Assembly (NCBI GenBank): GCA_963663765.2
Contig: CAXXUA010000013.1
Coordinates: forward strand, 224,001 to 288,000
Reading direction: 5' to 3'
Length of the DNA: 64,000 nucleotides
Source of the DNA: Candidatus Poribacteria bacterium
GTDB lineage: Bacteria > Poribacteria > WGA-4E > WGA-3G
Shown: in pieces, positions 56,725 through 64,000 of the stretch
How the letters are laid out: every line of letters begins with the position of its first letter
How positions within the stretch are numbered: the stretch's first letter is position 1
Position numbers and translations under genes: made by a program
Notes under the pieces: generated by a model
The model's input: only the letters and a program-made list of their open reading frames with translations
Database searches by the model: none
What the model was told of the DNA's origin: nothing

Positions 56725-59700
56725 CTAACTCAACGTCTCTTCTATTTCATCAGTGGGTTCTGGAAGTTCTTCTGGTTCAGGATTCGGGATTGCATTGCTT
56801 GTAACCTCAAGTTCCCTCCATTCAGAGAAACCCGTTCCAGCAGGGATAAGTCGTCCAAGAATTACATTTTCCTTCAAACCTCTGAGTAGATCTGTTTGTC
56901 CTTCTACTGCTGCATCAGATAGTACTTTACGTGTTTCCTGGAAGCTGGCTGCTGAAATGAAACTCTCTGTACTGAGCGATGCTTTGCTAATGCTTTGTAA
57001 CACTGGTTTTCCTGTTGCCGGTTCACCCCCATCTTGTTCAATGCGTCTATTCTCTGCATGGAATCTGTGTCGTGGAACTTCATCATTAGCGAAGAATTCA
57101 GTATCACCTACAGACAGTATTTTTATCTTTTGCAACATCTGTCGCACTATTACTTCTACGTGTTTGTCGTTGATGGTATTGTTTCCGGGATAAACTGTTT
57201 GTACTTCATCAACGAGATAAGCCCAGACTGCTTCTTCACCCTCAATTGAATGTCCGTTGATGGTAGTTCTTCCGATTTCAAGGATATCGTGTGGGTTCAG
57301 GAAACCATCAGTAAGGGGTTGTCCAGCTTCAATCCAGTCTCCATCGTCTACACGCCTTTTTTCATCAGTAATAGAATAGAGTCTGCTTTTTGTTGCCCCA
57401 TCAACAATTCTGTATTGTGGCACACCTGCTTTTTGACCTGTGAGTTGGACATTCCCATCAATCTCTGCGATTTCTGCAGCGTCTTGCCGTTTAGGAGGAC
57501 GTGCTTCAAAGAGTCCTGTCACCCGTGGTATGCCTGCTACGATGTCAAGGTTAGTTGTTTTTTCGTGTAACTCTGCCAAAGCCTGCTGTGCCTTAACCTT
57601 TTCACCTTCTTTGAGTGTACCGGAATACCCGTTGGGAATCAAGTGAGATACTCTGGCACCGTTTGAGGTTACTATATCAATACGGAACCTTTCTTTTAGA
57701 TCATCAACTTCAACGCCTGGATACTGTTCATAAGCAGTGGCATATTCCCAATCTTTAAGCGTTTGTCCAACAGTCAGAGTGCAGTTTGGATGAATTATAT
57801 TGGTAACTTCATAAGTATTCTTTGATGTGGCTGCAGTTACTTTCTTATAGTCTGCATCACTTAGGAATTCATCAACTGTGAGTTCGGTTTCAGCATCATT
57901 AACCTTTGTTACCTTGAAGACGCGTTCTGTATCAAATCCTTTGTAAAGCCTCAATGCCCGTTTATACTCGGTTTCGTCTATACGTTCACCAACAGTAAGT
58001 TGACATTCGCTATGATGAACTGCCAGAATATGGTAATAAAGTTTGTATTCTGGCGGCGGCGTGTCAGTCTCACGATGTGTTTTTACCAATGCTTTGTATT
58101 CCGAGTCCATTAGTACTTCTTCAGAATCACTTTCTTCAGTTTCAGGTATATAGAGTTTTTCAAAGTCAAAACCTCTGTAGCTTCTTCGGAATTTGTTGGA
58201 TTCAGATTGTGTGATTCGTTCATCAACAGCAACGGGGAAATCTGGATGATGTATTGCCACGACTTGATACAATCTTTCAACTTCAAACGCTTCCTCGTTT
58301 TTTGCGACATTTACATCAAATCCTGGGTATTGCTTCATTAAAGCCTTTTTCTCAGTATCGGTAAGGAGGATTCCAGGTTCTAACTTACAGTCCGTATTGT
58401 GTATTGCTGTAATCCGATGTTTAAGTGGGTCTACCGTAACACCACTAAATTTCTCACGTAAAGTTTCTAAGTTTGCACTTTCAATGAGTTCCCCAGGTTT
58501 CAGTGGACAGTCAGGATGCGTAACTTTTGTAACTCGAAACTGTGGGTTTGATAGTTTCTGCACTTCAAATGACTTATTTTCTTCCTGCGTGCGGCGGACT
58601 TCTGCAACAGTTAGTTCTTGTCCCTTTTCAATATCAACATCATCATAGACTTCTTTTACGGTATAAACAGGGTCACCAAATTCAATGTGGTATTGACTTT
58701 CTTCTTCAGGAGTTAATAGATCACCTATACTATGTGGAAAGTCGGGATCACTTACAGTTTCGATTTTATACTTCATTTGTGCTTTTTCTTTATTATTTTT
58801 CTTTTGCAAGTATTCACTTTCGGTAAGGATGTCTCCCTTATTAGTTTGATAAACCCATTCACCGTCAAAGGGACGGATTTTAGCACGCCATTCTTCTGCT
58901 TTGCTTTCAGTCAAAAGTCTACCTGGTCTTAACGAGGTCTTTGGTTTTGATACACTGATGACGGGATAACGGGCTTCATTACAACGGAATAGTGCGTATT
59001 TCTGAGAATACACATGGTATTCTTGTTCCGTAAGGTACTGACCCACTATCAATGAAGCATCTTTATCAGAAGCTGCTTCAATAACATCCGGACGGTTAAT
59101 CTGTCTGACTTCGTAATAGACAGTTTCTACTTCAAAACCGGGATACCTTTCATTGTTTTCCTGCTTCTGTTTTTCTGTAAGGAGTTCTTCTGGTTGCAGT
59201 TTACATTCAGGATGTTGTACCGATCTGACCTTATATTTCGGTTGGTCTGGGTGTTCAGCGACTTGTTGTGCAATCCACAAACCACTTTCTTCACGAACGG
59301 TGCGGCCGGGTATATAGTCACGGAAGCGAACATTCCCCGATGCCTTTGCCAGAATTTTACGAGCAAGACGTTCACTCATATCTTCAACAACACCACCCGT
59401 GTGGAAAGTACGCATTGTCAACTGCGTGCCAGGTTCACCAATTGACTGTGCTGCAATAATTCCTATTGCTTCACCTACATTCACAAATTGCCCTGAAGTT
59501 AAATCTGAACCATAGCAGGTTGCACACGCACCTTTTTCTGCTTCACAAGTGAGAATGGACTTTACACGTACACTGGGTACATCTATATCTTCAATGTGTT
59601 GTGCCATCTGAGGTGTGATGATCGAATCAGTTTCTACTAATACTTCCTCTGTTTCAGGGTGAATTATTGGTTCGACCGCGACTCTACCACTAATCTTATG

Positions 59701-62337
59701 ATTAATGGTTCCTGAGTCCGTAGTGAATTTTAGGATACCATGTGTGGTGCCACAGTCTTCTTCAGTAATCATCACGTCTTGTGCTACATCTACGAGTTTA
59801 CGAGTTAAGTAACCAGAAGCAGCGGTTTTCATGGCGGTATCCACCAATCCCTTCCGAGAACCATAAGTAGATGTGAAGTAATCAAGAACATCTAAACCTT
59901 CACGATATGAAGATTGTATCGGTGAAGATAGAATTTCACCACTCTGTTTTGATTTCAATCCAACGATAGCACTGATTTGATTGAATGGGTTCTTGCGTGC
60001 GCGTGCACCACTGTCAGCCATTAGATGAACAGGACTAAATCCTTTTACTTCTTTTCCCTGTTCAACCAGTTGTGTTTCAGTTTCTGGCAACGCATCAAAA
60101 AGTGAATCCTGAATTTCAGAGACTGCATCATACCAGATCCGTATCTTTTCGTTCTCTAATTCTTCAAGCTCAAGATTTTCCTCTGTAGACAGGCGTTCAA
60201 TTTCAGAACTTGCTTTATTAAGGATTTCCATTTTATTATCAGGAATCAGGTAATCCCGAATACCAGGAGAAATCCCACTACGTGTCGCATATTCAAAACA
60301 CAGTGTCTGTAGACGATCTAACAGGGATACAGTTTCTGTAGTTCCCAGTTCATTAAAGCACCTTTTGACAAGTTCAGATAAACGTCTGCTACGTGCTTCT
60401 TCATTGAAGAACGGTATTTCAAGTCCAGTTGTTTCATCATTCCAAGTAAGTGATGAAGTTCCATTCGCTTTTGGAAGAACTTCATTGAAGATCACACGTC
60501 CGACAGTTGTCAATATAGGCTCGCGATGTCCTTTGAAATAGAGTATAACCGAATCGTGTAGTTTAAGAGTACCGCATCCATGAGCATGGGTAATCTCATC
60601 CACTGTTGCGTAGCGGCGCTTCGCCCATTCTTCCTTTTCTAATGATGAAAAGTTACCGTTAGATTTGGTTTCATCTGAGTTTTCTGAGTATGCTGCATTG
60701 AGTAATTCTGCGCGTTCAGTATGTTCTGGCAACGCTTTCGTTAAAAAACTTGCTCCCAAAATCATATCCAATTCTGGTACAGTAATGGGTTCTCCGTGTG
60801 AAGGTTTGAGGATATTTCCACTACTTAACAGTAACATCTTAGCTTCAGCGCGTGCCTCAATAGAGAGGGGGATGTGCACAGCCATCTGGTCACCATCAAA
60901 ATCTGCATTGAAAGCTTTACAGACAAGTGGTGGAATTCGTATAGATTTACCTTCAACAAGTACCGGCATAAATGCTTGGATGCCGAGTCTATGAAGTGTT
61001 GGCGGACGATTGAGCAATACCGGATGGTCAGCGATAACCTCTTCTAATGCTTCCCAGACCGGTGAATCCGGTGTGACGTGTTCAGTCATGTATTTTCCAC
61101 GTTTGATTGTCTGGACTTCACCTGCGGCTAATAATTTTTCTATTATAAATGGTTTGAAGAGTTCAACAGCCATCAATTTGGGAATTCCACATTGATGCAA
61201 TTCAAGTTCGGGTCCCACGACAATAACACTTCTACCGGAATAGTCAACCCGTTTACCAAGTAGGTTTTGACGGAATCGCCCAACTTTCCCTCGCAAAATG
61301 TCAGATAAGGATTTTAGGGCGCGTTTACCCGGTCCAGTAACTTGTCGACCATGTCGACCATTATCCAAAAATGCGTCTACTGATTCCTGAAGCATCCGTT
61401 TTTCATTTCGGAGGATGACTTCAGGGGAACGTAGGTCTATTAGTTTTTGCAGACGATTGTTCCGGTTTATCACGCGTCGATATAGATCGTTTAGGTCGCT
61501 TGTAGCAAATCTTCCACCTTCTAAAGAGACTAAGGGGCGGAGATCCGGACTGATAACGGGTAGGACATCAAGTATCATCCACTCTGGTTGCATCTGTGTT
61601 TTATTGAAACCTGCTACCATTCTCAATTTCTTAGAGAGTTTCATTTTTTTCTGACGACTGGAGGTTGCTTCAAGTTCTTCAGTGAGTTTTTCAACATCTT
61701 CAGAAAGAGTAGTCTTTTGTAGGAGTTCCTTAATTGCATCAGCACCAGTTCCTGCTCGGAACGAATCTGGGTGATCGCGCAATTTCTCCTCCATTTCGGA
61801 TTCAGTAAGTATATCTTTTTCAACCAATCCGCACTCCTCATTCATAACCTCAGTGACGATGAACGCTTCAAAATAGAGAATACGTTCTACGGCGCGTGAG
61901 GCAAGCTCAAGGAGGGTTCCTATTCGTGAAGGGATACCTTTAAAGAACCAAATGTGAGAGACAGGAGTAGCAAGTTTTATATAACCAAGCCGTTCACGTC
62001 GGACTTGTGATTTCGTAACCTCAACACCACATTGATCACAAATAAGTCCTTTGTGCTTAATTCGCTTGTATTTTCCACAACTACATTCAAAATCCTTTTG
62101 AGGTCCGAAAGTTGCTTCACAAAATAGACCTTGATGTTCAGGACGAAAACTTCTGTAGTTAATGGTTTCAGCTTTCTTGATTTCACCGCAATCGCAAGTA
62201 CCTTTTTCCGAGCACGACCATGTGTCATCAGCTGGATTCCTCCGTTTGCAAGAGGTGCGTTTCGCCCAATCTCTTATCGTTTCAGGAGATGCAATGCTGA
62301 TTGAAATACGATTAAATTGATTTTCTTTATCTGCCAT
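56725..62337 (-). CDS. rpoC: DNA-directed RNA polymerase subunit beta' (1870 aa, giant trigger-loop insertion)
   Basis: Zn finger [33 protein letters not shown], bridge helix, [39 protein letters not shown]. Confidence 0.98.
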
Positions 62338-62446: not shown

Positions 62447-64000
62447 CTATTCAGAATCGTCGGTATTCCACGTCAATCTAAGAGGGGGTTCCTCTTCAAT
62501 CGGTTCCAGGGTATCTATCGTATGTAAGAGCGGGAAGCCTGCGTCAAGTAATGATGAATGCTCAGAATCAGCACCGTCACGATCACCTTCTGAGAGTTCT
62601 ACATTTAATCCCAGACTTTGCAGTTCTCTTACTAAGACATTGAAAGATTCTGGTGTCCCTGGTTTTAAGGGACTTTGTCCTTTCACAATTGATTCATAGA
62701 TTTTTGTTCTACCTTTTACGTCGTCGGACTTTATCGTCAACATCTCCTGAAGGGTGTGTGCTGCACCATACGCTTCCAATGCCCATACCTCCATTTCCCC
62801 GAGACGCTGTCCGCCATGTTGTGCTTTTCCACCAAGAGGTTGTTGCGTCACTAAGGAATAGGGACCTGTTGAACGTGCATGCATCTTATCTGCCACAAGA
62901 TGGTTTAACTTGAGGAAATATACATGACCGACAGTTACTTCCTGTCCGAACGGTTCACCAGTTCTACCATCAAAAAGGATGCTTTTACCAGTTTTCTTGA
63001 CGTTATCGGGTAAAACGGTTTTTGCTAACATTTCAAACACTTCTTCTTCTGTCGCACCGTCGAATACTGGTGATGACACATATAATCCGAGTTGGTGACA
63101 TGCTAATCCTAAGTGTATCTCAAGGATTTGACCAACGTTCATCCGAGAAGGTACACCAAGGGGATTTAAGACAATGTCTACGGGGGTACCATCAGGTAAA
63201 TAGGGCATGTCTTCCTCTGGTAATATTTTTGCAACAACACCTTTATTCCCATAACGTCCAGCCATTTTGTCACCGATAGATATTGGACGACGACTTGCTA
63301 CATAGACTTTTACAAGTTTTAATACTCCAGGCTTTAATTCTTCACCTGCTTCAAGTTTTTCCAAAGCCTCGTCTTTCTCCTCTGTATATGCATTGATTCT
63401 ACCAGATGCGAGTTCATGAAGACTCTTGATGTATGATGTAGCGTTAGTATCAGTAATCTGCAATGTTTCAAGTTCATTTTGTGAAAGAACATCCAGGTAT
63501 TCTCGCGTCAACACATCACCTGTTTGCAGCTGCCTAACTGATGCCGTGTTATCTTTTGCATCATCTTTATCATCAGTATCAAAAGTTGTTGGATACGCAA
63601 GTTCTTTGTTAGTTAAGGTTTCACGTAATTCTTCAACTAAACGTTCGGTGACCTGATCACACTGTTCTTTCCACGTTTGCTCAATTTGTTTGCGTAATGC
63701 TTCTTGCCGCCATGCAGTTTTCTCACTGTTTGGTGAAGTATGACGTGAGAAGACTTTAACATCAATAACAACACCTTCCACACCTGGTCGTGTGTATGCT
63801 GATGCGTCTTTTACCTCTTTGACTTTTTCACCGAAAATTGCACGAAGCAGTTTTTCTTCAGGACCATATTCACTTTCACCTTTTGGCGAAATTTTTCCAA
63901 CGAGGATGCTACCAGTACCTACGACACTCCCAACACGAATGATCCCCTCATCGTCAAGTTGGGCAAGACTACGTGCAGACATGTTTGGAATATCCCGGGT
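62447..64000 (-). CDS. rpoB: DNA-directed RNA polymerase subunit beta (C-terminal part; 5' end outside the window)
   Basis: Frame is open to the edge (TRDIPN...); [61 protein letters not shown]. Confidence 0.98.

Follow-up and report, generated by a model that had tools for sequence, protein, structure and literature searches.

Every cellular RNA polymerase has a moving catalytic element, the trigger loop. In E. coli it carries SI3 (also β′In6, or the β′ G–G′ insert; PDB 2AUK and 4IQZ), which is 188 aa long and consists of two sandwich-barrel-hybrid motifs (SBHMs) only, and in cyanobacteria and plastids it carries Si3 (PDB 8EMB, 8H02 and 8SYI), which is built from eight interdigitated SBHMs. 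The literature examined describes trigger-loop inserts as SBHM-only, and bioRxiv 2021.01.27.428476 gives ‘2–5’ SBHMs in many lineages; the 645-residue cyanobacterial Si3 is cited, in the passages that bear on insert size, as the largest known insert at this site. Within the trigger-loop domain (β′-uD5), the parts of PMC11515920 that treat it report only HABAS (SBHM) domains. Here we describe a 64,000-nt stretch of Candidatus Poribacteria DNA (assembly GCA_963663765.2, contig CAXXUA010000013.1, positions 224,001–288,000; hereafter the window) in which the rpoC gene, encoding the RNA polymerase β′ subunit, carries an SI3-type trigger-loop insertion built from ‘small left claw’ (sLC) modules in place of SBHMs. 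The Poribacteria family that hosts it is sponge-associated. Where E. coli SI3 has two SBHMs, the Poribacteria insert has one SBHM and, in one loop of that SBHM, an array of ~13 modules of another kind, 514 aa in all; where cyanobacterial Si3 repeats SBHMs, it repeats sLC-like modules, and because the building block is different we regard it as an expansion independent of Si3. Taken as a whole, the insert is probably a lineage-specific β′In6/SI3-type insert of one Poribacteria family, an sLC array nested in an SBHM loop that would have an SI3-like role.

A repeat array splits one SBHM in the trigger loop

On the minus strand, rpoC (56725..62337) is the sole open reading frame of at least 150 aa over the insert region, and the plus strand holds only short frames of 63–106 aa there. 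The product was identified as β′ by Pfam Rpb1 domains 1–5 and by NCBIfam TIGR02386 at 1419 bits. Both trigger-loop arms are unbroken and invariant across 20 aligned relatives. Exactly 615 residues (983–1597; window 57547–59391) separate MRTFHTGG from DIVAGIPRV, which makes the insertion of about 615 aa reported in the initial annotation exact in coordinates and in length. The insert lies after M-R-T-F-H-x-G-G and before the G-h-P-R-V helix, that is, at the SI3/β′In6 site.

Repeat units were located with a seed hidden Markov model (HMM) made from four units that were chosen by coordinate alone. This seed HMM gave 11 matches in the first pass and 13 at convergence. With a profile re-trained on 201 units from 20 species (unit cut-off, domain E < 1e-3), the array resolved into 11 clear and two degenerate units of ~38 aa each, in agreement with the ~13 tandem units of ~39 aa claimed beforehand, and the unit consensus is YRVTAVHHPDCPLKVGELLTEAEYKEAREQYKGFDVE. 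When the seed units were taken out, the seed HMM still recovered four units at E < 1e-3 in the other 455 residues; none of 200 shuffles yielded a unit, nor did the remainder of β′. At the DNA level, the insert holds no tandem repeat besides one 24-bp CTTTTT run, and the unit copies are therefore old.

AlphaFold modelled the insert with a mean pLDDT of 82.3 and a pTM of 0.48, and a three-unit stretch with a pLDDT of 80; at such a pTM the shape of the whole arm stays unpredicted. The unit itself is predicted to form a strand, an 11-residue loop (the HPDCPLKxGE stretch), a short strand, a 10-residue helix and a strand. The two ends of the insert had been read as the halves of one SBHM, and both sequence and structure comparisons bear this out. 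The N-terminal half matches residues 109–156 of the sister-family SI3 (BLAST, E 1.7e-5) and the C-terminal half matches residues 151–194 (E 3e-4), and the SBHM matches of the whole-insert model (4iqz_A and 2auk_A) start and stop in its two ends (model residues 27–31 to 627–636). Residues 1548–1588 also gave a weak Pfam match to Apocytochr_F_C (E 0.095), and Foldseek superposed 40 residues of the C-terminal half on the small domain of cytochrome f (r.m.s.d. 1.2 Å). This 40-residue piece was the sole confident local match of the whole-insert model in a Foldseek search of the PDB, which returned none at E ≤ 1e-3, and the same search with the three-unit model returned none. A phmmer search of PDB sequences with the 615-aa insert gave 0 matches, and thus no sequence similarity to cyanobacterial Si3, and an ESM Atlas search with residues 1262–1400 gave no usable match. 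The insert is acidic (net charge −26, pI 5.3) and has a mass of ~70 kDa. Like SI3 it contains an SBHM, but SBHM repeats are not its only constituent: sLC-like units account for 514 of its 615 residues, which makes it an SI3 variant and not a typical member.

The repeat unit is homologous in sequence to a conserved N-terminal module of β′

The initial annotation did not recognize the repeat unit. By hhalign, a profile of 58 units (A2) matched the N-terminal β′ segment over 36 of 38 columns with a probability of 97.8 % and E 1.2e-12; the segment profile (A4) was drawn from the window genome, E. coli, a close relative and four genomes of the sister families. When A2 was searched against all PDB sequences, β′ chains made up five of its six best matches, and they share one N-terminal site, namely residues 141–162 of B. 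subtilis β′ (E 0.012) and the equivalent site of four further β′ chains. An HMM made solely from trigger-loop units detected this segment in the window β′ and in 45 of 77 β′ proteins of the family, and the sister-family version of the segment closely resembles the unit consensus. In the relevant parts of PMC11515920 (Alvarez-Carreno et al. 2024), β′-bD2 spans residues 139–177, 145–191 or 142–181 in the examples given, β′-bD7 spans residues 1060–1103, 1155–1198 or 1255–1298, and the two are treated as homologous sLC domains (CATH 3.30.60.280). As the PDB profile, hhalign and unit-HMM matches all coincide with bD2, the unit is, judged by its sequence, an sLC domain nearest to bD2, and we take it to be a duplicate of this conserved module rather than something new.

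The unit and the sLC domain are alike in length (~40 residues) and in the order of their secondary-structure elements. Ordinary β′ subunits have bD2 and bD7 as single conserved copies, whereas the Poribacteria trigger loop has an array of ~13. Among the 50 VIA matches listed for the three-unit model, the best structural matches were β′ chains at bD7; in hhalign, the bD7 region matched neither the unit profile nor the bD2 profile. No SBHM chain is among those 50 matches, and the ~38-residue unit with its 10-residue helix differs from the SBHM, a β sandwich/barrel of ~80 residues with a G-D/E hammerhead motif. These observations support a middle part made of a repeat type other than the SBHM, as had been proposed from the letters of the sequence.

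The unit form is very rare, since a three-unit profile found only 20 proteins at E ≤ 1e-3 among 1.84 billion representative proteins. By Pfam, these include β′ and β proteins or their fragments, three TPR-repeat proteins with units (P0093, 837 aa; P0095, 938 aa; P0100, 452 aa), several short pieces left unassigned and one false positive, P0092 (Big_9/cadherin), in which the unit HMM finds 0 units. P0093 also has a weak match to HSDR_N_2 (nuclease-like) at its N-terminus.

Small α/β modules that multiply as lineage-specific tandem inserts are already represented by the BBM2/BEAN modules of the β subunit (E. coli β-i4, SI1; PDB 3LTI). The likeness to our units extends to this behaviour, but the canonical module is longer and has a TGE motif that the units lack. 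The unit aligned weakly with the canonical β-i4 module in hhalign (47.8 %, E 1.9e-4, 24 columns) and the unit HMM matched one canonical module (E 2.7e-4), whereas hhalign of the unit profile with E. coli β 201–363 (β-i4) alone gave no match and E. coli β-i4 is not among the 50 VIA matches listed for the three-unit model; we do not class the unit as BBM2. The β-i4 site holds one to six BBM2 repeats in the part of PMC2939025 devoted to it. According to Cavalier-Smith 2006, two insertion sites of BBM2 in β′, unnamed in that passage, were catalogued by Iyer et al. 2004. The RpoB of the window genome has one canonical BBM2-like module and zero repeat units. In four other RpoB proteins (L063, L064, L065 and L066, from genera g4, g2, g6 and g3, respectively), 3–5 units are present at β-i4 (around residues 233–460), where they directly precede the canonical TGE-motif module; L065 has two more units near its C-terminus (residues 1375–1466), and P0082, an RpoB of the same family, has five units at β-i4.

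Extra sLC copies are rare and occur only within bD2, bD4, bD5 and bD7 in the sections of PMC11515920 on such copies, and a 13-copy sLC array in the trigger loop is not described in the body of that source, its Table S4 aside. A literature search returned no described insert in a Poribacteria RNA polymerase and nothing on BBM2 relevant to the trigger-loop site. The claim that this architecture is undescribed at the trigger-loop site holds for the literature examined, the catalogues of Lane and Darst 2010 and Iyer et al. 2004 aside.

The insert is restricted to one family and is under purifying selection

Used as a protein query, the insert gave 80 matches, of which 79 are β′, at insert identities from 89 % down to 34 %; all matches with an organism name are Candidatus Poribacteria. 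A survey of 176 genomes of the phylum, with the insert as the one query throughout, found it in 107 of the 111 genomes of the window's family (f1, six genera), always in frame, and in 0 of 64 genomes of other Poribacteria families. The four f1 genomes without a match are 81–90 % complete. The insert measures 613–655 aa in the 77 β′ proteins with both landmarks, three fragments without landmarks having been left out of the count. Four genomes of two sister families encode a β′ of 1411–1434 aa with a trigger-loop insert of 198–203 aa and 0 units, and these shorter inserts align to E. coli SI3 at the identical insertion point. In a comparison with the closest genome, the insert has a dN/dS of 0.11 and the rest of rpoC one of 0.04, and the insert is under purifying selection. 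A search of genome contigs for related loci gave three loci, all from close relatives.

Short contigs from a metatranscriptomic library (run X10) match window positions 57683–57962, 58353–58511 and 59081–59161 with 0–2 differences and cover 11 of 30 bins; this records presence in an RNA library and is not proof of transcription.

Proposed architecture and role

In the architecture that we propose, a single SBHM, a homologue of the second one in E. coli SI3, links the two trigger-loop arms, and one of its loops hosts the ~13 tandem strand–loop–strand–helix–strand modules of ~38 residues, duplicates of bD2. Because both ends of the arm are fixed to the trigger-loop arms, it must move with the trigger loop, and ~70 kDa of acidic protein would then shift with every folding of the loop over an incoming nucleotide. 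The array enters and exits at a single SBHM loop, so it should fold back and would not form a simple straight rod. By analogy with SI3 of E. coli and cyanobacteria, whose function is taken from the relevant parts of PMC11077087 and bioRxiv 10.1101/2024.01.11.575193, the arm would tune the rate of elongation (nucleotide addition) and pausing. It would probably limit or mediate the access of other factors to the secondary-channel side as well, and the side of the enzyme formed by secondary channel, jaw and lobe may be shielded or bridged by it. An SI3-like role, in which a large acidic arm is coupled to trigger-loop folding, is likely on these grounds.

Units and endonuclease domains elsewhere in the polymerase of relatives

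The trigger-loop insert of some relatives is longer and holds further domains. P0084 (a relative's β′, 2210 aa) has an insert of 966 aa (residues 983–1948) with 13 units and, inside it, a REase_MTES_1575 domain (residues 1328–1421). In L060:563-3181 (G154) the insert is 833 aa, with an MTES_1575/DUF559 domain (Pfam E 2.8e-26) in frame in the unit-2 loop; in L052:560-3148 (G068) it is 823 aa and the same loop holds an HNH-like CxxC...HH...CxxC stretch without a Pfam call. Both nuclease stretches fall in columns ~170–345 of alignment A1. The 845-aa insert of L054 (G066) had no nuclease domain found in it.

Other β′ sites are also occupied. Six same-genus β′ proteins (P0004–P0008 and P0030; 2241–2426 aa) have a second insert of ~375–560 aa between window residues 892 and 901, with 2–6 units; it is absent from the window β′ and polymorphic within the genus. 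At least in P0004, the second insert has MTES_1575 at 986–1090, followed by units. Units ahead of the trigger loop were found in 6 of the 77 β′ proteins scanned. P0103, a C-terminal β′ fragment, has MTES_1575 together with units. P0073 and P0079 have 100–150 aa extra near residues 186–193, beside the N-terminal sLC, and the unit HMM detects two copies there; P0042, P0047 and P0057 have an insert of 370–420 aa near window residues 725–767 with no unit or Pfam match.

In the window, the genes downstream of rpoC are housekeeping genes (fumarase, FMN reductase, RNase HII, ThiI and heptosyltransferase). The β′ N-terminus has an extra Cys-rich stretch (residues ~25–55; window 62337–62200) before the usual zinc-binding CxC...CxxC motif. 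Features are collected in Table 1.

Table 1. Features of the rpoC region of the window (window coordinates; residues are those of β′)
Feature	Coordinates	Strand	Residues	Basis or remark
rpoC, RNA polymerase β′ subunit	56725..62337	-	1870 aa	open reading frame, translation, Pfam, TIGR02386
Trigger-loop C-terminal arm DIVAGIPRV	57520..57546	-	1598-1606	conserved in alignment A1
Base SBHM, C-terminal half	57547..57693	-	1549-1597	BLAST, Foldseek, SBHM match
Unit array, 11 clear + 2 degenerate sLC-like units	57694..59235	-	1035-1548 (514 aa)	unit HMM, shuffles, AlphaFold, hhalign
Clear units 1-6	59122-59235, 58987-59115, 58855-58968, 58675-58770, 58555-58665, 58426-58539	-	1035-1072, 1075-1117, 1124-1161, 1190-1221, 1225-1261, 1267-1304	re-trained profile
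Clear units 7-11	58309-58419, 58156-58269, 57922-58035, 57832-57918, 57700-57813	-	1307-1343, 1357-1394, 1435-1472, 1474-1502, 1509-1546	re-trained profile
Degenerate unit remnants	58771-58854 and 58036-58149	-	~1162-1189 and ~1397-1434	
Base SBHM, N-terminal half	59236..59391	-	983-1034	BLAST, four modelled strands, SBHM match
Trigger-loop N-terminal arm MRTFHTGG, intact	59392..59415	-	975-982	invariant in 20/20 aligned sequences
Conserved N-terminal β′ module (β′-bD2, ‘sLC’), apparent unit parent	61753..61863	-	159-195	hhalign, unit HMM, PDB profile search
rpoB (β), 3′ part, directly upstream of rpoC, same operon	62447..64000	-		full protein 1356 aa

Alternative explanations

The source is a metagenome-assembled genome and repeats are prone to mis-assembly, so that a chimeric contig, a collapsed or expanded repeat or an annotation error might be suspected behind the insert, an alternative that had been raised when it was noticed. 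The insert, however, has no DNA-level repeat, the frame is open over the full rpoC, and all 37 same-genus rpoC matches listed carry the insert in frame without an internal stop. Contigs of three studies cross 57200–59700 gap-free and in a single piece; two of them, possibly the source of the window, match it exactly, and the third shows 17 substitutions but 0 indels. Together with the occurrence in 107 of 111 family genomes, these contigs overturn the artefact explanation, to which we give practically no credence. The initial annotation had also pointed to a recurrent H-x2/3-C motif in five units as a possible metal or redox site, in which case the arm would couple the state of the cell to catalysis. 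The count stands: five of the 11 units of the window insert have H-x2-C, in the form H(H)P(D/E)C, and some His and Cys residues are invariant in 20 orthologues (for example C83, C355, H312, H480 and H554 of alignment A1). The proposed function lacks support: no unit contains more than a single His and a single Cys, frequently replaced, which is too few for metal-binding repeats with their 3–4 conserved ligands per site. Of the 201 units, 139 have His and 112 have Cys, with both in 94, His only in 45, Cys only in 18 and neither in 44. Cys gives way to F, L, I or T and His to D, E or N, a pattern of a buried hydrophobic position with a polar cap. The parent module has the Cys without the His in the sister families and neither residue in E. 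coli, and no metal-binding family is among the Pfam matches of the insert. Metal binding or redox sensing through this motif is therefore very improbable.

The array might instead be the fixed footprint of an in-frame selfish cassette, a nuclease plus self-folding sLC units, that invades surface loops of rpoB and rpoC; the copy in the window would have lost its nuclease and be kept because it is harmless, with no regulatory part to play. MTES_1575/DUF559 or HNH sequences stand inside or beside unit arrays in relatives (P0084, L060, L052, P0004 and P0103), the 892/901 insert is confined to some species of the genus, and units also occur at β-i4 and near the RpoB C-terminus in other genera and in TPR proteins. 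Against this, the window array has no nuclease domain by Pfam, the array is orthologous throughout the family and varies little in length among the 77 proteins, and its presence in 107 of 111 genomes with a dN/dS of 0.11 marks it as an old, fixed and constrained part of β′ and not a recent invader. Nuclease activity and mobility of the relatives' domains are also putative, and a mobile origin is compatible with a present function. We consider a merely harmless footprint distinctly unlikely, and prefer the SI3-like arm. Several points nonetheless weigh against that preference. At a pTM of 0.48 the arm's overall shape has no prediction from the model, and the role in pausing and factor access is argued by analogy alone. 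Units and endonuclease domains sit at several other β and β′ sites in relatives, which fits opportunistic accretion at permissive surface sites equally well as an adaptive role, and the dN/dS of 0.11 could also be explained by the mere need to fold harmlessly on the trigger loop.

The domain arrangements in relatives suggest that in-frame nuclease-bearing cassettes helped the array to spread. A bolder version, which we hold to be unlikely but worth stating, is that the arrays were laid down by an undescribed, intein-less in-frame mobile element composed of a PD-(D/E)xK (MTES_1575/DUF559) or HNH nuclease and self-folding β′-derived modules. Such an element would home into surface loops of the essential genes rpoB and rpoC, the trigger loop included, stay in the mature protein and later lose its nuclease, and the 615-aa arm would be a domesticated relic in the role of SI3. 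If true, giant trigger-loop domains would have arisen by two independent routes, this one and that of the cyanobacteria.

Significance

A trigger-loop insert as large as Si3, reaching 966 residues in P0084 and so exceeding the 645-aa cyanobacterial Si3 cited as the largest, can be built from a module other than the SBHM. By its sequence, that module was copied from a conserved region of β′ itself, and it has multiplied at several permissive β and β′ sites in one bacterial family, sometimes beside endonuclease domains. The family thus offers a natural experiment on the mass that a trigger loop can carry. It is also an instance in which SI3 has grown convergently, and it may give insight into the origin of lineage-specific inserts in RNA polymerase.

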